Made by a program: the position numbers and the translations under genes
Sequence record: OR067834.1
Length of the DNA stretch: 64,000 bases
Direction: 5' to 3' (one strand)
Source: Escherichia phage KKP 3715
In this document: positions 49,789-57,092 of the stretch, piece by piece
Layout of the letters: every line of letters begins with the position of its first letter
Position numbering within the stretch: position 1 is the stretch's first letter
Notes under the pieces: generated by a model
Told to the model about the DNA's origin: nothing
Databases searched by the model: none
What the model saw: only the letters and a program-made list of their open reading frames with translations

Positions 49789-50276
49789 TAGTATTTACTA
49801 CCTCTTCTATACCAAGGGTAATGGTGGGTAGTGCTCTTGCCTTTGAACACATCCTTGGTATAAGGATTCTTTTGTATTTGAGCCAGGTAAAGATGCATGT
49901 CGTCATAGCAAGGACTAAGCCAGAACTTATCTATGATACGATCTACCTTAGCTTTCAGATGAGGTTCAGGAGGGATGTATGGGAAAACATTAAATGATCT
50001 ACTAGTCCATCCTTTCTGAATAGCAGCTTGCATTGCTGCGTAAACATCGGGACCAATTCCATTTTCTTCTACTTGGTCATGTATAGTTTTACCTAAAGTA
50101 AGCATTGCAGTTTGTTCCAGTTTACTTAAGTCCAGTCCATATAAGATAGACTTACCATTTTGTCTGTTTGACATAAGAGTACCTGTAATTAAAAAAGCCC
50201 ACTGGTTAGGTGGGCTTGGATTAGGAGATGGATAAGCAATGAGCTGGAAGTAACTTCCACAAGCATCACTATACAA
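49788..50276 (-). CDS. hypothetical protein
   Basis: 162 aa ORF. Confidence 0.4.
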   Translation of the reverse strand: MYSDACGSYFQLIAYPSPNPSPPNQWAFLITGTLMSNRQNGKSILYGLDLSKLEQTAMLTLGKTIHDQVEENGIGPDVYAAMQAAIQKGWTSRSFNVFPYIPPEPHLKAKVDRIIDKFWLSPCYDDMHLYLAQIQKNPYTKDVFKGKSTTHHYPWYRRGSKY

Positions 50277-50291
50277 TGATGCTTAGGTTAG

Positions 50292-50534
50292 TTACTCTGC
50301 TTTACTGCCACCATTGGTTTGAACAACAGTTACATTTGTAACTTGGTTCTGACCTTTGTTGGACAGTGACCAAATCAGTGCTACTACCCAGAAGACTAAA
50401 GACCAGCCTAATACGATATTGAGTACACCAATGCCCCACTTAGAGGCATGGCCTCGTGCAAAAGCAATAATGGTAGGGATAAGGTATACAGCTAGTGCAA
50501 ATAACAGAACAAGGATTGCTGCTAAAGATTCCAT
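50292..50534 (-). CDS. superinfection-immunity-like small membrane protein
   Basis: Start moved to the ATG at 50534 (AGGAAC RBS). YLIPTIIAFARGH...NIVLGWSLVFWVVALIWSL matches the pattern of the Imm-type superinfection immunity family as recalled (two TMDs with a conserved GW). Confidence 0.45.
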   Translation of the reverse strand: MESLAAILVLLFALAVYLIPTIIAFARGHASKWGIGVLNIVLGWSLVFWVVALIWSLSNKGQNQVTNVTVVQTNGGSKAE

Positions 50535-50607
50535 GATGGTTCCTATGTGGGGTTGAGTTAGTTTCTTCACAAATAGCCCAACTATGCTGGGCTATTTAGG
50601 CAGCTAC

Positions 50608-50817
50608 TTACTCAGCATCTTTGCTTGCAGGAGCAAGAGCTTTCTTCAGGTAATTACGTACCGAACGATAGGTTTCTTTGGTGTCCATAGCGCTATCATT
50701 TACAAATACGATACGTGCACAGTCAGACAGCGGAATCTGTTCTACTGCAATTACATTTGCAGCATTAATGGTTAAGCGTACATCTGAGGTTGCATGAGTT
50801 ACTTGAAATACTGACAT
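50608..50817 (-). CDS. hypothetical protein
   Basis: 69 aa ORF. Confidence 0.3.
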   Translation of the reverse strand: MSVFQVTHATSDVRLTINAANVIAVEQIPLSDCARIVFVNDSAMDTKETYRSVRNYLKKALAPASKDAE

Positions 50818-50847
50818 ACTGTTTCCTTGATTAATCTGGATAGCCTT

Positions 50848-51300
50848 TTATTTTGAAGGTCTAGCAGATACTGGTTTGTTTGGTTGACACTGGTACTTAC
50901 CTTCATAACGACAATGCTCTGCTATCTCTTCGAAGATAACCTGAGCTATGCCAGTACCAGCTTTTATTGTAACAGGCAAAACACCCGAATAACGAAGCTC
51001 AAGAGTAAGGAAACCTTTCCACCCTGGTTCGATATTGGTTGTCATGCTTGCATCAATCCCCTTTCTGGCCCATGTACTCTTATTAAGTACACGGCCCATA
51101 AGGTTTGGTGGTACGTCAAACTCTTCTATGGCTGACGCTAGTACGAATCGACGCCCCAAGAACATAGTCACATCCTGCTTAATACGAATATCGTATCCGC
51201 ATTCTGTAAGACCCCAAGAGAAACCATTACTGGTTTGCTTAGAGTCCACCATGTTCTTTATAGGAGCCAGTTCTAATAAACGACTGCGGTTAATAATCAT
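50848..51300 (-). CDS. dCTP deaminase / dUTPase-superfamily protein
   Basis: 150 aa; NIEPGWKGFLTLELRYSG resembles the dCTP deaminase active-site region (G..G.LTLE). Confidence 0.45.
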   Translation of the reverse strand: MIINRSRLLELAPIKNMVDSKQTSNGFSWGLTECGYDIRIKQDVTMFLGRRFVLASAIEEFDVPPNLMGRVLNKSTWARKGIDASMTTNIEPGWKGFLTLELRYSGVLPVTIKAGTGIAQVIFEEIAEHCRYEGKYQCQPNKPVSARPSK

Positions 51301-52472
51301 TTCATTCCTTTAGGGATATGAACTACCTCCCCAAAAGGTACGGTAGCATTGGGATTATTCAGAACACACCATATGATAGGAATATCAAATGGTAATTCTT
51401 CCATAGGGCGAACATACATATCAGAGAATATGATTGCAGCGGTTGGCTTATTCTTAATAATCCAATCACGTACCGGTACAAGGTTTGTACCACCACGACC
51501 GGTAATCTTAATCTCTTCAAAAGTATCTTCTTCAGTGATGTCTATTTCTTCTTGGATAATATCGTCGAAGGTAATAAGAGTCATCTTCTTAGGATTGAAC
51601 TGGCTCTTGACGTAGGCAACCTCTGAGTTAAAACGCAGAGAGTCAGCACTACTAATAGAACCGGATACATCTTCAAAGTAGGCTAAGTGCCGTAAACGTC
51701 CTTCATCATCTTCCAGTGATGGTAGATAGATGTCAGTGAATCGACGATTAGGTCTGGCCCACGTATAGTGTGTATCATCAATGTCGGTAAAGAAATTCAG
51801 CAGGACTTCCTGCCATGGAACCACTGGTTTTAGGAATTGGGTAATAACCTCTTCCATACGACCAGCACCTTTACCGGGCATCATTCCACCAGCCATCTTC
51901 TGGCTTTGCATTGCACGTACTACGTTGTTGACAACAGCACCCTGGGACTGCCCCGAAGAGGGAGCTTTCATGTCGCCAGCAAGACCTGCTCCAGCACCCC
52001 CTGACGGCTTCTGCCTTTTCTGAGGGTTCTTCATCAGGTCATCGTAGATGTCTTCTTCGACCCATCCTTTATATTGAGGGTCTTTGCAAATGCCTTCGTC
52101 GATACCAGTGAACTTGTAACCATCTTCCTCTAACTGAAGGTTGATGAAGTGGTCACATGCTTGGTTCCATACTTCCGGGTCACGGCTTCCACAACGGATG
52201 CCATGCAGATATGCTACATGCCAGAGTTCGTGCATTAGCACTGTTTCTCTTGCATCAGGGCACATCCAAATAAAGAAGTCTGGGTTGAAATGGAGTTCTA
52301 TCCCATCGGTACATGCAGTGGGACAGTCTTCACGTTTCCATGAGAACTTAAGGCTACACAGCAATGAACCAAAAAACGCAGCAGACTTGCCTAGAAAGGC
52401 TTGGGCCTGAATACGGTCATACTCACGCATGAGTTGTTCATCACTGAGTGTGTGCTGAGGTATCTGGTTCAT
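51297..52472 (-). CDS. vWA-domain protein with N-terminal HExxH metallopeptidase-like domain (MoxR partner)
   Basis: Start moved to the ATG at 52472, just past the upstream stop; zincin-like MHELWHVAYLHG, Gly-rich linker, then a vWA-like C-terminal region; directly downstream of the AAA+ ATPase. Confidence 0.45.
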   Translation of the reverse strand: MNQIPQHTLSDEQLMREYDRIQAQAFLGKSAAFFGSLLCSLKFSWKREDCPTACTDGIELHFNPDFFIWMCPDARETVLMHELWHVAYLHGIRCGSRDPEVWNQACDHFINLQLEEDGYKFTGIDEGICKDPQYKGWVEEDIYDDLMKNPQKRQKPSGGAGAGLAGDMKAPSSGQSQGAVVNNVVRAMQSQKMAGGMMPGKGAGRMEEVITQFLKPVVPWQEVLLNFFTDIDDTHYTWARPNRRFTDIYLPSLEDDEGRLRHLAYFEDVSGSISSADSLRFNSEVAYVKSQFNPKKMTLITFDDIIQEEIDITEEDTFEEIKITGRGGTNLVPVRDWIIKNKPTAAIIFSDMYVRPMEELPFDIPIIWCVLNNPNATVPFGEVVHIPKGMK

Positions 52473-52479
52473 GTTGTGA

Positions 52480-53532
52480 TTATCCGTGAATGTAACGAGA
52501 GATGTTGGCAGCAGCCTTACGCCATTCAGGGGTAGCCTGAATTTCTGGTAATGCTTTGCCCACTGTACGGAAGTACAGAATCTTATGAGTGAACGTTTTA
52601 AAGCGTTCAATGTACTGAAGTACATCAACGAAATTATCTTCAGTGGTCTTGTTAGCCAGATGGTTAACGGTAGCCCAGCACAGGTTATTATCTTCCGGCA
52701 GTGCACAGCCCAAAGGGTCTTTGACTACCTTCTCAATCGTAATCATACGATTATATACCTGGGTGAACTGAACAAACTCTACAGCCTTACCTGGTGTAAC
52801 GAAACCACTGTAGTACAGGGAATCCTCGTCAGGCAAAGCACCTTCTGGTTGGTTCTTGAGGTCTTTATTAATGAAGTCCCAAGTACGAGGGCAACAGAAT
52901 GTTTTGTTCTTATGAGCAGGATCGAAGTCGTGCAAATAACCCGGGTTAGCATGTAAGAATGCAACCAGACGCTCATCCCATTCTTGTGGAATCATTACGT
53001 CTTCAACAAAGATGTCGAAGTTAAGTTCCATTTCGAAGTGGACGACACGGGACTGCATTGCAGTACCCAGTGGGTTAACGATAGCACGGTCAGTAGCTTT
53101 GTTACCGGCACAGATAATCATCACATTAGGGTGAAGTTTCTTCTGACCAGTCATACGGTCGAGAATCAGTTTGTATGCAGCAGCTACTACTTCTTTCTTA
53201 GCTGAGTTGAACTCATCAAGGAACAGGAGCCAGCCATTATAACCTTCTGGTACTTCATCTCCCTCAATAGGGAATAAGTCAGCGAAAGGGATAAACTCTG
53301 CTCGGTCACCATTACGGAATGGTAGACCAGACAAGTCTTCCGGGGCAGAAGTAGACAGACGATGGTCAATCAGCTTCATACCAAATTCTTCTGCAACAGA
53401 ACGAATAATTGCAGACTTACCCATGCCAGGTGATGAAGTCAGGAACGGTACGTTACCTGCTTGCAAGGCACGGATAATAAAGTTACGGGCTTGGCGTGTA
53501 TTACATACAGTCAAGGAGTCAATGCTCGCCAT
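52480..53532 (-). CDS. MoxR-like AAA+ ATPase
   Basis: 350 aa; Walker A SSPGMGKSAI, Walker B LLFLDEFNSAK; paired with a vWA gene as in MoxR-vWA chaperone systems. Confidence 0.6.
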   Translation of the reverse strand: MASIDSLTVCNTRQARNFIIRALQAGNVPFLTSSPGMGKSAIIRSVAEEFGMKLIDHRLSTSAPEDLSGLPFRNGDRAEFIPFADLFPIEGDEVPEGYNGWLLFLDEFNSAKKEVVAAAYKLILDRMTGQKKLHPNVMIICAGNKATDRAIVNPLGTAMQSRVVHFEMELNFDIFVEDVMIPQEWDERLVAFLHANPGYLHDFDPAHKNKTFCCPRTWDFINKDLKNQPEGALPDEDSLYYSGFVTPGKAVEFVQFTQVYNRMITIEKVVKDPLGCALPEDNNLCWATVNHLANKTTEDNFVDVLQYIERFKTFTHKILYFRTVGKALPEIQATPEWRKAAANISRYIHG

Positions 53533-53566
53533 TTACTTACTCTCCTAAAGTTAATGGAATTACTAA

Positions 53567-53893
53567 TTAAGATTTAACGCATGGATACGCTGTATCAATC
53601 GCTAACAGAACCATGTCTGATGGTATTTTTACTGCATTAACCTTTCGGTCATACAGAATAATAGAGGCCACTCTGTCAAAAATGTGCCCTAACTTCATAT
53701 CGTCAGGTACACAGTTCTTTCCTGCTTCCACCCCCATAGTAACCATGCCCATGAAGTAACCCTGATTCACAAAGTTTGCATTATTGGCTTTGTAGTCAGC
53801 AGCAGCTTCCAGCAAGGTTGCACGACTAGATGCTTGAGCACCGAATGACAGAACTGATAAAGCTACTACAGCAACAGTAATTAAAGTTTTCAT
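53567..53893 (-). CDS. secreted small protein with cleavable signal peptide (hypothetical)
   Basis: N-terminus MKTLITVAVVALSVLSFGAQA looks like a Sec signal peptide with an AxA site; two Cys. Confidence 0.4.
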   Translation of the reverse strand: MKTLITVAVVALSVLSFGAQASSRATLLEAAADYKANNANFVNQGYFMGMVTMGVEAGKNCVPDDMKLGHIFDRVASIILYDRKVNAVKIPSDMVLLAIDTAYPCVKS

Positions 53894-54079
53894 TTAGTTA
53901 CCTTTTAACTCATTGAGTTGAAGTACTCCGGTAGGGGTTAATGACCACCCAAGACCAGCATTGAACTGTACTAAGCCCAGCTTCTTAAGAGACTGTGCGG
54001 TTTTATTATTACGGTTGCTGGTGGCAGAACCACCTTGAACCATGCGAAGGAAAATTGCTTGGGACTGAGTAAGTTTCAT
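53894..54079 (-). CDS. hypothetical small protein
   Basis: 61 aa ORF coupled to neighbours. Confidence 0.3.
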   Translation of the reverse strand: MKLTQSQAIFLRMVQGGSATSNRNNKTAQSLKKLGLVQFNAGLGWSLTPTGVLQLNELKGN

Positions 54080-54297
54080 TTCTTCTCCGGTACGAACTGC
54101 ATTACACAGTTTTGATTACGAGGGATATTCAATTCACATTCATGCTTGAGGGTTTGGGTTACAGAGTTTGGAGTAGAACCAAAGTAGGTATTAGAAATAG
54201 CTACAATTCCTGCACCAAAGAACCCTCCTAACACGAACGAGAAGAATGCAATCTCTTTATACATTTCCTGGCTCCAGATGTGAAAAACCCCAGTCAA
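54076..54297 (-). CDS. small membrane protein (hypothetical)
   Basis: 73 aa, one strong hydrophobic helix (IAFFSFVLGGFFGAGIVAI). Confidence 0.35.
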   Translation of the reverse strand: MTGVFHIWSQEMYKEIAFFSFVLGGFFGAGIVAISNTYFGSTPNSVTQTLKHECELNIPRNQNCVMQFVPEKK

Positions 54298-54325
54298 TGC
54301 TGGGGTTTATCTATCAGTTTATACT

Positions 54326-54586
54326 TTACAGACCATGAGGTCGGCATAGACTACCTGAACCAAAGGAACGGTGTCCAAGTCGGCCCAGGATTAGATTGCT
54401 TACTTCAGCAGCAGCACGGCTGAATGCTTTAAAGTCAAAGACTACGACACCAAATAGCGGGGCTGCGATAGCAGCTACCATGACCGGTGTCAGGTCATTT
54501 AGTGACATACCCAAGATTACGTGGGCAGCATAAGCAATAAGGCCCATAACAGCACTACAACCGAATCCAATAGCAATTTTACGCAT
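54326..54586 (-). CDS. small membrane protein (hypothetical)
   Basis: 86 aa, two hydrophobic helices. Confidence 0.35.
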   Translation of the reverse strand: MRKIAIGFGCSAVMGLIAYAAHVILGMSLNDLTPVMVAAIAAPLFGVVVFDFKAFSRAAAEVSNLILGRLGHRSFGSGSLCRPHGL

Positions 54587-54643
54587 AGTTACCTTCTTAG
54601 TTAGTAGATTGATACATATTCATATAACAGACAAACAATAGTC

Positions 54644-54672
54644 AAAAAAAGACCCCCCTTCAATAGGGAGGT
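54644..54672 (-). terminator. Rho-independent terminator after the decoration-protein gene
   Basis: On the - strand: GACCTCCC-TATTGAA-GGGGGGTC followed by TTTTTTT. Confidence 0.6.
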
Positions 54673-54723
54673 CAATCTTGAGGGTTTCCTTTCGGGGTTT
54701 ATAACCCCAAATAAGGGATACCC

Positions 54724-55557
54724 TTACTCTGCAACAGTAACAGCGATGGTTACGTCTACAGTACCATTGGTAACTACTACAGAAGTAGCATCACCAGCAG
54801 CCACTGGTTTAACTGTCAGTACGTTACCAGCAATGGTAGCTGTAGCACGGGCGGAATCCGGAGCAGTCTTGATAGATAAAGTACCAACAGACGCTCCAAC
54901 AGGCATAGCAGTAATGGTTACAGTCTTACCATCTGTGGTATCGTCAGCAACGGACAGAGCCAGTGAAGCAGGAGTAGCTACCAGTGAGCTTGCTTCGTAG
55001 TAGCCTACAGCCAGCAGTGAGGTATCTTCTACCGTGGTTCCATTAGCATCAGTAACAATCACTTTATAAGTACCAGCAGAAGCAGCTGTTACGTTACTAA
55101 GGGTCAGTGTTGCAGTAGCAGCAGATGCGTTATCACCAGAATCAATATCAGCGAATACTGCACCAGCAGTGTTAGCTTTGTATTGCCACTTATAAGTAAA
55201 TGGTGCTTTACCGCCTGCTACATCAATGTGCCAGTTAATATCTTCACCTTCGATAGTGGAGATTACACGAGGCAGTTTGGTAGCAATAGTTAGTCGTGGA
55301 GTAGCTTGCATGTCGATAGTGACCGACTGCATATCCACGATGTTGTCAGGCCAGAAGCCTTCTTCAGCAGGGTTTTTAGCAGAGCGTTTATACAACAGGT
55401 CACGAACACCGTGAAAGATAACTAAGCTATCGGGGTAAGTGGCATCTGGATGTACAAAAGTACCTACTTCCACAGAACCACCTGGAACACTACCACCTGA
55501 ATCAAGCACGGTAGCAACGTTGGTAGTTTTATTAAACGCAATCTTTAAGGTTGGCAT
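54724..55557 (-). CDS. Ig-like capsid decoration protein (N4 gp17-like, tentative)
   Basis: 277 aa, Thr/Ala/Val/Ser-rich beta-type composition with repeated xTVxV patterns; followed by a strong terminator; position just downstream of the split RNAP genes matches N4 gene order as recalled. Confidence 0.4.
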   Translation of the reverse strand: MPTLKIAFNKTTNVATVLDSGGSVPGGSVEVGTFVHPDATYPDSLVIFHGVRDLLYKRSAKNPAEEGFWPDNIVDMQSVTIDMQATPRLTIATKLPRVISTIEGEDINWHIDVAGGKAPFTYKWQYKANTAGAVFADIDSGDNASAATATLTLSNVTAASAGTYKVIVTDANGTTVEDTSLLAVGYYEASSLVATPASLALSVADDTTDGKTVTITAMPVGASVGTLSIKTAPDSARATATIAGNVLTVKPVAAGDATSVVVTNGTVDVTIAVTVAE

Positions 55558-55603
55558 GCATGTATCCTCTTGAGTAAATATGCCTAATCATTATGAAGGC
55601 TGA

Positions 55604-55633
55604 TAAAAAAGAAAGCCACCCTCAAGGGTGGCT
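55604..55633 (-). terminator. Rho-independent terminator
   Basis: On the - strand: AGCCACCC-TTGA-GGGTGGCT followed by TTCTTTTTTATC. Confidence 0.55.
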
Positions 55634-55814
55634 AGTTGTTGATGTGGTAAATCCAGTAAGCTATCCAACCGGCTAATACAAAACATCCGGCAGAGTACGC
55701 TCCATAGTAGCAATAAGCAAACTTGGATTTGTGGGCGTTAACTATAGTGAGTATCACAATAGCAGATAAAACTATCAGTACGGTTTTAGTAATAACATCA
55801 TAGATGTCTGGCAT
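55632..55814 (-). CDS. small membrane protein (hypothetical)
   Basis: Start moved to the ATG at 55814 with GGAGGT RBS (track start lies inside the upstream terminator); two hydrophobic helices. Confidence 0.4.
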   Translation of the reverse strand: MPDIYDVITKTVLIVLSAIVILTIVNAHKSKFAYCYYGAYSAGCFVLAGWIAYWIYHINN

Positions 55815-55831
55815 GTTGACTACCTCCAAGC

Positions 55832-55868
55832 AAAAAATAAAAAGCCCCATACCCGAAGGTATGAGGCC
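55832..55868 (-). terminator. Rho-independent terminator after RNAP subunit gene
   Basis: On the - strand: GCCTCATACC-TTCG-GGTATGGGGC followed by TTTTTATTTTTTG. Confidence 0.55.
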
Positions 55869-55874
55869 AGTTTA

Positions 55875-57092
55875 TTAACTTAATGCATAATCCGTTTCAA
55901 GAATGTCCTGCCAGAGGCTGTCATCCAGCTTACCAGCAGAAAACTCTTGTCCCAGTACCTGAGACAGAATGAAGCCCAGCAAATCACTCTTAGCAATGTC
56001 AGACAGAATCTGATTGTACTGACGACGCAGGTCATTGCCATAGTTAGGGTGACAACGGAAGCAGTCATGTACGGTCATTACAGGGAATGGTTTCTTAGGC
56101 ATGGTATTGATCATAGCCATGATTACATCTGTATCAACCAATGCAATCGTTTCTGAGTCCAGATAGTCAAAGATACGGGTAGACAGGAATCCCGACTTCT
56201 CATAGCTAGCCCATAGTGTGTTAACCATTTCATGGTTAGCATCAGGAACAACTATGTATTCACTGGTTCCTTCACAGAGGGACTTAATATAGTTCACCTG
56301 GTTCATGTTGAAGTTACAACGACGCAGCATCTCACGTACCACCATCCCATCAATAGAGTGGGTGATGTTAGCAGAGAGCATACGAGTCTTCTCTTCAGTA
56401 CCCTGAACCATACGAGTGATGTCGAATGGTTTACCTAAGAAGTTAACGGTCTGTACTTCTGGAACCATGACCTTAATGACAGCATGGTAGTTGTCAGGCA
56501 ATACCCATACGTAACGGTTAGCATCCGGGTTACCACATTGCAGTAAGAACTTGTTCAGTGCCCAAGGTCCACTAGCAACAGTTTCCATTACATTCTCAAA
56601 AGTCTTGAGACGGATACCTTCACCGAATACTTCTTTAGGCTTAGCTTCTGAACCGTAGAACGCAGTCATAACTGCCTGCTTGGTGTCACTACGTTTAATA
56701 CGAGATGCTTCACCAAGGATGTCCAGCATCTTGTGATAGATAACTGTATAAGCATCACGACGTAATGGCTTACCATTCTCTCCCATGTAGTTAACTACGT
56801 TACACAGTTCAGCAGCAGAACGGTCACCAGTCAGGCAAGCCAGTAACTGTAAGCCAGATGATGTAGCATCCAGAGCTACGGCATAGCCAATAGGCTTACC
56901 AGCTTTCATGTCTTTCCATGCGTTTATACCTGCATAGAACAGTGCAGATTCTTCAGCTTCATCTACCAGATTGAGCAGGTTAGCTTCGTTCTCATCGAAC
57001 CAGCTAATACGTTCATCCCATGTCTTCTTGTCTAAGCCATAGTTGTTAGCGATATCTACTTTCAGGTATTCACGGGCAGTTAACAGTTGCAT
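55875..57092 (-). CDS. T7-like single-subunit RNA polymerase, C-terminal catalytic part (N4 RNAP II large subunit-like)
   Basis: 405 aa; motif A-like DATSSGLQLLA (T7 DGSCSGIQH), motif B-like RSDTKQAVMTAFYGS (T7 RSVTKRSVMTLAYGS), motif C-like VHDCF (T7 HDSF). Confidence 0.65.
   Translation of the reverse strand: MQLLTAREYLKVDIANNYGLDKKTWDERISWFDENEANLLNLVDEAEESALFYAGINAWKDMKAGKPIGYAVALDATSSGLQLLACLTGDRSAAELCNVVNYMGENGKPLRRDAYTVIYHKMLDILGEASRIKRSDTKQAVMTAFYGSEAKPKEVFGEGIRLKTFENVMETVASGPWALNKFLLQCGNPDANRYVWVLPDNYHAVIKVMVPEVQTVNFLGKPFDITRMVQGTEEKTRMLSANITHSIDGMVVREMLRRCNFNMNQVNYIKSLCEGTSEYIVVPDANHEMVNTLWASYEKSGFLSTRIFDYLDSETIALVDTDVIMAMINTMPKKPFPVMTVHDCFRCHPNYGNDLRRQYNQILSDIAKSDLLGFILSQVLGQEFSAGKLDDSLWQDILETDYALS

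Follow-up and report, generated by a model that had tools for sequence, protein, structure and literature searches.

An AAA+ ATPase gene and a gene whose product combines a zincin-like domain with a von Willebrand factor A (vWA) domain lie side by side on the minus strand of Escherichia phage KKP 3715 (sequence record OR067834.1; the window is the whole stretch of 64,000 nucleotides (nt) that was analyzed), and they raise the question of what kind of machine the two products form and on what target it acts. An initial annotation, made from the letters alone, read them as a MoxR-like ATPase coupled to a vWA protein with an HExxH metallopeptidase-like domain. That observation is confirmed and its interpretation supported, and the pair is one that the annotation had missed, the long-known gp24/gp25 core pair of phage N4. 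The feature is already known, in that the genes, the domains and even a proposed role are present in the literature and databases. We favor, with about even confidence, a two-part MoxR-vWA protein-remodeling machine with a built-in peptidase, whose target lies in phage development.

Megablast shows 92-95% nucleotide identity to G7C-like coliphages (Gamaleyavirus, Schitoviridae) across 2.2 kb; the G7C orthologues, whose copies are 93% identical, are annotated as gp24 and gp25, 'similar to N4 gp24/gp25'. On sequence grounds the pair is orthologous to N4 gp24/gp25. Gene order is the same, and the position on the same strand between RNAP2/gp17 and dCTP deaminase/ThyX/rIIA is kept, with RNAP2 subunits, dCTP deaminase, ThyX and rIIA as shared neighbors, matching the gene tables of G7C and U1G. 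The Enquatrovirus-type gp25 has ~62% protein identity to the window protein, with no essential difference from the N4 pair, and the window copy is free of HNH, intron or intein insertions. N4 gp24 (AAA+ ATPase) and gp25 (vWFA domain) are counted in the N4-like phages' core gene set, their function being given as 'unknown' (PMC4193335, PMC2784036, PMC7650795), and are among the few such core genes to which no function has been assigned. One of these papers describes them as middle transcripts, and in its virion mass-spectrometry table for phages RPP1/RLP1 neither N4 gp24 nor gp25 is named as the homologue of any listed product. Compared with G7C, the ATPase differs at 12 of 351 amino acid positions and the gp25-like protein at 14 of 392, with 57 synonymous versus 12 non-synonymous codon differences in the former and 58 versus 14 in the latter; both genes are under purifying selection against G7C.

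Both open reading frames (ORFs) are present on the minus strand within the limits 51297-53532 that had been proposed. The ATPase frame runs from an ATG at 53532 to a TAA at 52482-52480, and the second gene follows directly, as the annotation had it, after a gap that is 7 nt long (tcacaac) rather than 8. The mechanical ORF of the gp25-like gene extends back to a GTG at 52706, with that part overlapping the ATPase gene; the homologues in an alignment of 38 sequences begin at the position of the ATG at 52472. Downstream lies a dCTP deaminase gene (Pfam DCD, E 2.2e-18), to which the gp25-like gene is, judged from the overlap of stop and start codons, translationally coupled.

A profile search finds both the AAA+ and the vWA homology claimed for the pair (Pfam AAA E 2.3e-6, above threshold; DUF2201_N E 5.5e-55; DUF2201 E 4.5e-34), and the 350-residue ATPase has the expected Walker A and Walker B motifs at residues 33-40 and 102-107. 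It matches PHROG 1297 (E 3e-132), its best PDB sequence match is midasin (E 5.6e-5), and the best fold matches of its model are dynein, midasin, CbbQ and NorQ. We aligned 39 members of the family, 50-87% identical and drawn from metagenomic and isolate N4-like contigs; 37 of these match AAA_5 (E<1; best 7.5e-5), ten bpMoxR and eight AAA_3, all weakly, and the AAA_5 cutoff is passed by distant ATPase partners at two other loci (L013 and L011). In the ATPase model an invariant loop, D56-P71, opens a ~40-residue insert that separates strand 2 from the Walker B strand, and ahead of the sensor-1 strand the model has a beta-hairpin (residues 127-133). A helix-2 insert and a pre-sensor-1 beta-hairpin are both marks of the clade of MoxR, dynein and midasin. 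Within the insert, residues 63-81 have a predicted local distance difference test (pLDDT) score below 50, and this invariant, low-confidence loop may become ordered on partner binding. The MoxR-like assignment of the initial annotation is supported by the matches of relatives to AAA_5, bpMoxR and AAA_3 and by those to midasin, dynein, CbbQ and NorQ; with the window protein's own Pfam scores for these families sub-threshold, the case for a MoxR/AAA_5-type ATPase from motifs, fold and context is good but not airtight. NCBIfam yields no match for the ATPase or for the gp25-like protein, and the only PADLOC 2023 match of the ATPase is to DolB (E 0.0044), which reflects generic AAA similarity.

The gp25-like protein matches PHROG 1314 (E 4e-144), and the above-threshold Pfam matches and the PHROG matches of both proteins greatly exceed chance. 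The zincin-like HExxH segment attributed to the gp25-like protein is HELWH at residues 81-85, within a DUF2201_N domain whose profile matches only M48/minigluzincin peptidases in the PDB. Residues H81, E82, H85 and D107 are invariant across 38 aligned proteins (48-86% identity, from metagenomic and isolate N4-like contigs), and H90 is conserved in at least 90% of them. When the N-terminal domains of cellular homologues, 24-34% identical, are added, H81, E82, H85, R93, R97, N103, A105 and D107 are still invariant. The model has strands at residues 42-45, 53-55 and 59-62, followed by a helix (72-87) bearing HExxH. A profile of residues 1-150 was built from phage and cellular homologues, because the vWA domain dominated searches with the whole model; all ten of its ten PDB matches are zincins (among them selecase MJ1213, E 0.012; M48 peptidase 3c37, E 0.02; HtpX; and BepA), and the alignments cover the edge strand and the HExxH helix. 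Foldseek places selecase 4qhi at rank 50 (E 0.12), and a single-sequence PDB search with the gp25-like protein returned a low-complexity chance match only. The zincin relationship of the N-terminal domain is weak in score but consistent. Both enzymatic centers and the metal-binding site are strongly constrained, which argues against a degenerate peptidase domain.

The remainder of the protein also agrees with what had been proposed. A Gly-rich linker (residues ~155-180) is gap-rich, variable and modeled with low confidence, and the C-terminus is vWA-like, with a DUF2201 match, a vWA (Rossmann-like) fold and an intact metal ion-dependent adhesion site (MIDAS) motif. The complete MIDAS set, D268, S270, S272, T329 and D351, is invariant in all 38 sequences. 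Just before the vWA domain stands the W238-RPNRR-YLP segment, conserved yet modeled with pLDDT <50 (residues 234-242 and 247-256); this segment is a candidate docking element for the ATPase. Taken from its sequence, the gp25-like protein is a bona fide vWA/MIDAS protein with an added zincin-type domain, whose peptidase activity is putative. Coordinates of these features are collected in Table 1.

Table 1. Window coordinates of the features of the gp24-like/gp25-like locus.
Feature	Coordinates	Strand	Remarks
Shine-Dalgarno AGGAG, ATPase gene	53542..53546	minus	9 nt upstream of ATG 53532; read from sequence
gp24-like AAA+ ATPase gene	52480..53532	minus	350 aa (amino acids); TAA stop included
Walker A SSPGMGKS, residues 33-40	53413..53436	minus	P35, G38, K39, S40 invariant in 39 homologues
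Loop D56-HRLSTSxPxDxxGLP-71, candidate helix-2 insert/pore loop	53320..53367	minus	invariant in alignment
Walker B LLFLDE, residues 102-107	53212..53229	minus	D106, E107 invariant
Sensor 1 N144 to Arg finger R162	53047..53103	minus	A142, G143, N144, Q160, S161, R162 invariant
Spacer tcacaac, 7 nt, between ATPase and gp25-like genes	52473..52479	minus	without clear Shine-Dalgarno
gp25-like gene, zincin-like and vWA domains	51297..52472	minus	391 aa; start ATG 52472
DUF2201_N putative metallopeptidase domain, residues 17-253	51714..52424	minus	Pfam E 5.5e-55
Active-site segment H81-E-L-W-H85...H90...N103-x-A-C-D107	52152..52232	minus	alignment conservation
Gly-rich variable linker, ~residues 155-180	51933..52010	minus	gap-rich; pLDDT <50 at 158-164
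Segment W238-x-RPNRR-x(4)-YLP, residues 234-256, just before vWA	51705..51773	minus	W238, R243, R244, Y249, P251 invariant
vWA-like DUF2201 domain, residues 263-386	51315..51686	minus	Pfam E 4.5e-34
MIDAS motif D268-V-S-G-S272	51657..51671	minus	completed by T329 and D351
ATGA overlap, gp25 stop/dCTP deaminase start	51297..51300	minus	dCTP deaminase gene 50848-51300

From these genes and domain identities, the conserved catalytic residues, the tight linkage and the orthology with N4 gp24/gp25, we infer by analogy how ring formation, docking, MIDAS capture and proteolysis might proceed and what the target might be. The gp24-like protein would form an ATP-hydrolyzing AAA+ ring, on which the gp25-like protein would dock through its vWA domain and the neighboring conserved segment. 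The MIDAS metal site would grip a target protein by an acidic residue, ATP hydrolysis would tug at or loosen that protein, and the N-terminal HExxH domain, of the M48/minigluzincin-like kind, would cleave the loosened target. The pair would be made mid-infection from a unit that also holds nucleotide-metabolism genes, and would be cytoplasmic rather than part of the virion. A structural precedent is NorQ/NorD, where a MoxR hexamer has its pore plugged by one vWA protein, an arrangement that its authors propose as general for MoxR/vWA couples (PMC9976466). Because the pair is core to all N4-like phages, a phage-internal target, for example one needed when a phage protein complex matures or is assembled, is favored over an accessory anti-host role. 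Further support is taken from the lack of any identified scaffolding protein in N4 (PMC11445570), from the chaperone-rich neighborhood (HSP70, DnaJ) of a homologous pair on a large phage-like contig (L020), and from the jumbo phages, in which Iyer et al. described the same MoxR and metallopeptidase-vWA pair and, taking the MoxR-vWA tail chaperone of Acidianus two-tailed virus as the analogue, proposed that it serves in assembling virions, with proteolytic processing as part of this role (PMC7824862).

Comparison with known systems places the pair more closely. The group 2.2 jumbo phages (Iyer et al. 2021, PMC7824862) have the same two-gene architecture, although they are a different phage lineage and the assembly role is likewise a proposal there. 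Proteins p618 (MoxR) and p892 (vWA) of Acidianus two-tailed virus are also a viral MoxR-vWA pair, reported, in the accounts cited by PMC7824862 and PMC7159879, to be required for a virion assembly step; as described there they differ in having no peptidase domain, in the archaeal host and in being virion-associated. In NorQ/NorD, CbbQ/CbbO and RavA/ViaA the vWA partners are without an HExxH domain and the clients are metabolic enzymes, and the window ATPase differs from NorQ, CbbQ and RavA in its extra helical C-terminal region of ~180 residues. Midasin/Rea1 joins an AAA ring and a MIDAS domain in one giant polypeptide of eukaryotes, which has six AAA modules and lacks a peptidase. FtsH and other AAA+ proteases couple an AAA+ motor to an HExxH zinc peptidase and offer an analogy for the working mode, but FtsH carries its motor, of the classic AAA clade, and an M41 peptidase in one membrane-anchored polypeptide, whereas the window pair consists of two soluble proteins with a MoxR/AAA_5-type motor, a MIDAS receptor and an M48/minigluzincin-like peptidase. 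The MoxR-vWA ternary conflict systems (Kaur et al. 2020) share a MoxR ATPase and a vWA protein to which a peptidase-type effector is fused, but in most cases that effector resembles trypsin or caspases; it is often inactive and only rarely a metallopeptidase, and they include a third component (VMAP, iSTAND, beta-propeller). A search for such a component (VMAP, iSTAND, beta-propeller, FtsH) among the window neighbors, which are small ORFs, dCTP deaminase and the superinfection-immunity gene Imm, found none, and therefore the window pair is not a ternary conflict system.

Several observations weigh against the machine as we propose it. The window ATPase scores 17.7 bits against AAA_5 (cutoff 22) and 13.7 bits against bpMoxR (cutoff 27), both sub-threshold; the profile matches of the peptidase domain in the PDB are weak (E ~0.01); and for the third zinc ligand there are two candidates, H90 and D107 (helix 99-116). 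The genes sit among middle, non-structural genes, by dCTP deaminase, ThyX and the superinfection-immunity gene, outside the late structural block, and the WYL-regulated, integrase- or transposase-adjacent cellular homologues point to a conflict function rather than to assembly. A full-text literature search found no functional study of DUF2201, of N4 gp24/gp25 or of MoxR in N4-like phages, in keeping with the statement of the initial annotation that the phage substrate is unknown, and three structure papers on Schitoviridae report neither a protease, a scaffold nor cleavage data, and describe no N4-like protein as proteolytically processed. The CRISPRi-ART paper was searched for N4 terms, and no mention of these was found.

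The last of the genomic points leads to the most serious alternative, to which we give a minor but substantial share of belief, that the same machine is aimed at the host and disables a defense protein or a replication-limiting factor in take-over or counter-defense. Middle-gene position and the conflict-island context of the cellular homologues favor a host target: expression is in the middle phase, a superinfection-immunity gene is among the window neighbors, and the cellular homologues stand in islands with WYL-WCX regulators, an integrase, transposases, HipA, SbcC-like and IetA-like ATPases, methylases and a McrC-like nuclease. MoxR-vWA-peptidase systems have moreover been predicted to act against invaders (PMC7159879, PMC12839542). 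Counter-defense genes are, however, usually accessory and variable, whereas this pair is core in N4-like phages of many host phyla, which would require one conserved host target, and PADLOC has no model for gp25 or the cellular partners. In another reading proteolysis would be absent and the pair merely remodel its client, like RavA-ViaA, CbbQ-CbbO or p618/p892 of Acidianus two-tailed virus, with the HExxH domain serving for regulation, auto-processing or as a metal-binding structural element. The characterized MoxR-vWA pairs do work without proteolysis, and peptidase domains fused to vWA proteins in the ternary systems are often inactive (PMC7159879); but inactive peptidase domains normally lose residues such as H81, E82, H85 and D107, which here are invariant from the phages to distant cellular homologues, and we consider a pure chaperone unlikely.

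A metal-cofactor insertase like NorQ/NorD, CoxD/CoxE or CobS/CobT, with a client such as a neighboring nucleotide-metabolism enzyme, would fit the translational coupling to dCTP deaminase, the presence of ThyX nearby, the weak matches of eight of the 38 gp25-like homologues to VWA_CoxE, and NorQ and NorD among the fold matches of the pair's models. Partners in known insertases are without an HExxH peptidase domain, though, and other lineages that keep the pair have wholly different neighbors; in DSS3phi2 and EE36phi1 a dCMP deaminase and other genes come in between, and an insertase seems very improbable. To the description of gp25 as an HNH endonuclease, carried by PHROG 1314 and by many GenBank and RefSeq records, we give practically no credence. 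Pfam searches of the 38 homologues at E up to 5 find an HNH family in none of them, which refutes the label at the sequence level; DUF2201_N and DUF2201 account for the full length of the protein, and the real HNH genes at this locus are separate insertions in G7C and U1G, which are the probable source of the wrong label. Dozens of GenBank and RefSeq records of N4-like and jumbo phages call the gp25 homologue 'HNH endonuclease', and the published table of phage R7L, where 'gp25 HNH endonuclease' is counted as a nucleotide-pathway gene, probably refers to the same mislabeled gene; the error distorts functional summaries.

Selfish elements are drawn to this locus and sit right at its conserved motifs. 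In G7C a free-standing HNH gene, gp24.1 (L002 3674-4150), lies exactly within the 7-nt spacer (window 52473-52479). In U1G an 882-bp HNH/intron-like insertion (L001 4419-5300) interrupts the ATPase gene, falling between codons 105 and 106 directly before the Walker B residues D106-E107, which maps to window 53217/53218; its HNH ORF is annotated 'phage intron', and at 23.7 bits against the Rfam group I intron (gathering score 50), 'intron' is only a lead. Two metagenomic gp25 homologues, P0364 (519 aa) and P0371 (701 aa), are each interrupted by an intein within the invariant N-x-A-C-D motif beside HExxH, after A105 and before C106, corresponding to window ~52155-52160. Inteins and an intron-like element exactly at active-site motifs are expected for conserved, functionally important genes. 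The intein junctions read A|CISGES... and A|CVAKGT... at the N-terminal side and ...VVHN|C at the C-terminal side of both; one is a mini-intein of ~150 aa, the other is ~330 aa long. The databases also contain pieces of split ATPases as proteins of their own (P0142, P0143 and P0193).

The family extends far beyond the N4-like phages. With clusters formed at 50% identity, a family profile search matched 22,267 representatives, 15,380 of them at E <= 1e-10, so that ~22,000 clusters are spread across phages, prophages, bacteria and archaea; one protein search with the gp25-like sequence gave 993 homologues, and tblastn located a homologue in 666 phage records, comprising N4-like phages that infect many hosts, jumbo phages of the 121Q and PA5oct types, a cyanophage and others. 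In the two jumbo types the homologue is 24-29% identical over >90% of its length. The rV5-like coliphages have the peptidase part only (query residues 23-244 or less, 23-26% identity), under the labels 'putative metallopeptidase', 'putative anti-sigma factor' or 'HNH endonuclease'. Capsid assembly in N4-like phages is poorly understood; identifying the substrate would close a gap in what is known of these phages and show what MoxR-vWA-peptidase machines of this type do.

We examined distant loci in an archaeal metagenome-assembled genome (MAG), bacterial chromosomes, an HK97-like prophage and large phage-like contigs, and in every one an AAA_5-type gene of ~370 aa lies upstream of the DUF2201 gene, with one small gene separating the two in the prophage (L017) and in one large phage-like contig (L019). 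In the 166-kb phage-like contig L020 (6850-14861) the pair is a few genes from HSP70, DnaJ and further VWA proteins. Five bacterial loci (L011, L015, L016, L018 and L021) encode in order a ~540-620 aa protein of no known family, the ~370-aa AAA_5-type ATPase and the DUF2201 protein, and such cellular cassettes are frequently extended, either by DUF7663 with a divergent WYL-WCX regulator or by an IetA-like double-AAA ATPase encoded upstream. Together with the mobile and conflict-related genes that adjoin them, as listed above, these cassettes look like a mobile conflict island, and they resemble the ternary conflict systems in the conserved extra protein upstream and the island-like context. 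PADLOC 2023 has no model for the gp25-like/DUF2201 protein, the cellular ATPase, the ~600-aa partner or DUF7663, and among the cellular partners it matched only a 715-aa double-AAA protein resembling IetA; the cassette is a candidate for an uncharacterized conflict or defense system. A broader and more speculative proposal, which we hold only tentatively, is that the phage pair represents, in its smallest form, a not yet described class of two-component ATP-dependent proteases (MoxR motor, MIDAS receptor, M48/minigluzincin-like peptidase) needed mid-infection by all N4-like phages, and that the same module with the ~600-aa protein and a WYL regulator constitutes an unrecognized mobile defense or conflict cassette of bacteria.

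Around the pair itself, terminator-like hairpins at 54673-54651 and 50217-50195 flank one unit, which contains four small ORFs, the ATPase/gp25-like pair, dCTP deaminase, a 69-aa ORF and the superinfection-immunity gene. In the region 50000-56000 of the window 13 terminator-like hairpins were found versus 4.3 expected, and the strong ones on the minus strand are at 55868-55843, 55633-55614, 54673-54651 and 50217-50195. Six sigma-70-like promoters in the same region, fewer than the 11.5 in shuffled sequences, are uninformative, though they fit N4 middle genes, which are without host-type promoters.

Other genes of this neighborhood are small. A 92-aa membrane protein (50292-50570, minus strand) in the same transcription-unit-like block matches Imm_superinfect (E 7.5e-17). 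The 108-aa ORF directly upstream of the ATPase gene (53567-53893, minus strand) has a signal-peptide-like hydrophobic N-terminus and a sub-threshold match to Rap1a immunity proteins (E 0.004). Two genes downstream of the pair, the 69-aa ORF (50608-50817, minus strand) evolves fast, being 49% identical in G7C versus >90% for the flanking genes; its match to bpX6, a domain of MoxR-vWA ternary systems (18.6 bits, E 0.0017, below cutoff), is not reproduced by the 49% and 37% identical homologues of G7C and contig L003, and is attributed to chance.

Some N4-like copies of the pair are filed under cellular organisms. A 69-kb contig of an 'archaeon' MAG (L003), with 78% DNA identity across the pair and a gp25 that is 79% identical, is very likely an N4-like coliphage-type contig misbinned there. 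N4-like gp25 homologues with 46-51% identity are also present in a 727-kb contig of Mesorhizobium yinganensis (L005) and a 296-kb contig of a Roseococcus MAG (L004), in both of which a ~376-aa ORF, presumably the ATPase, lies directly upstream; integrated N4-like proviruses have been reported (PMC10654107), and these two contigs fit that description.

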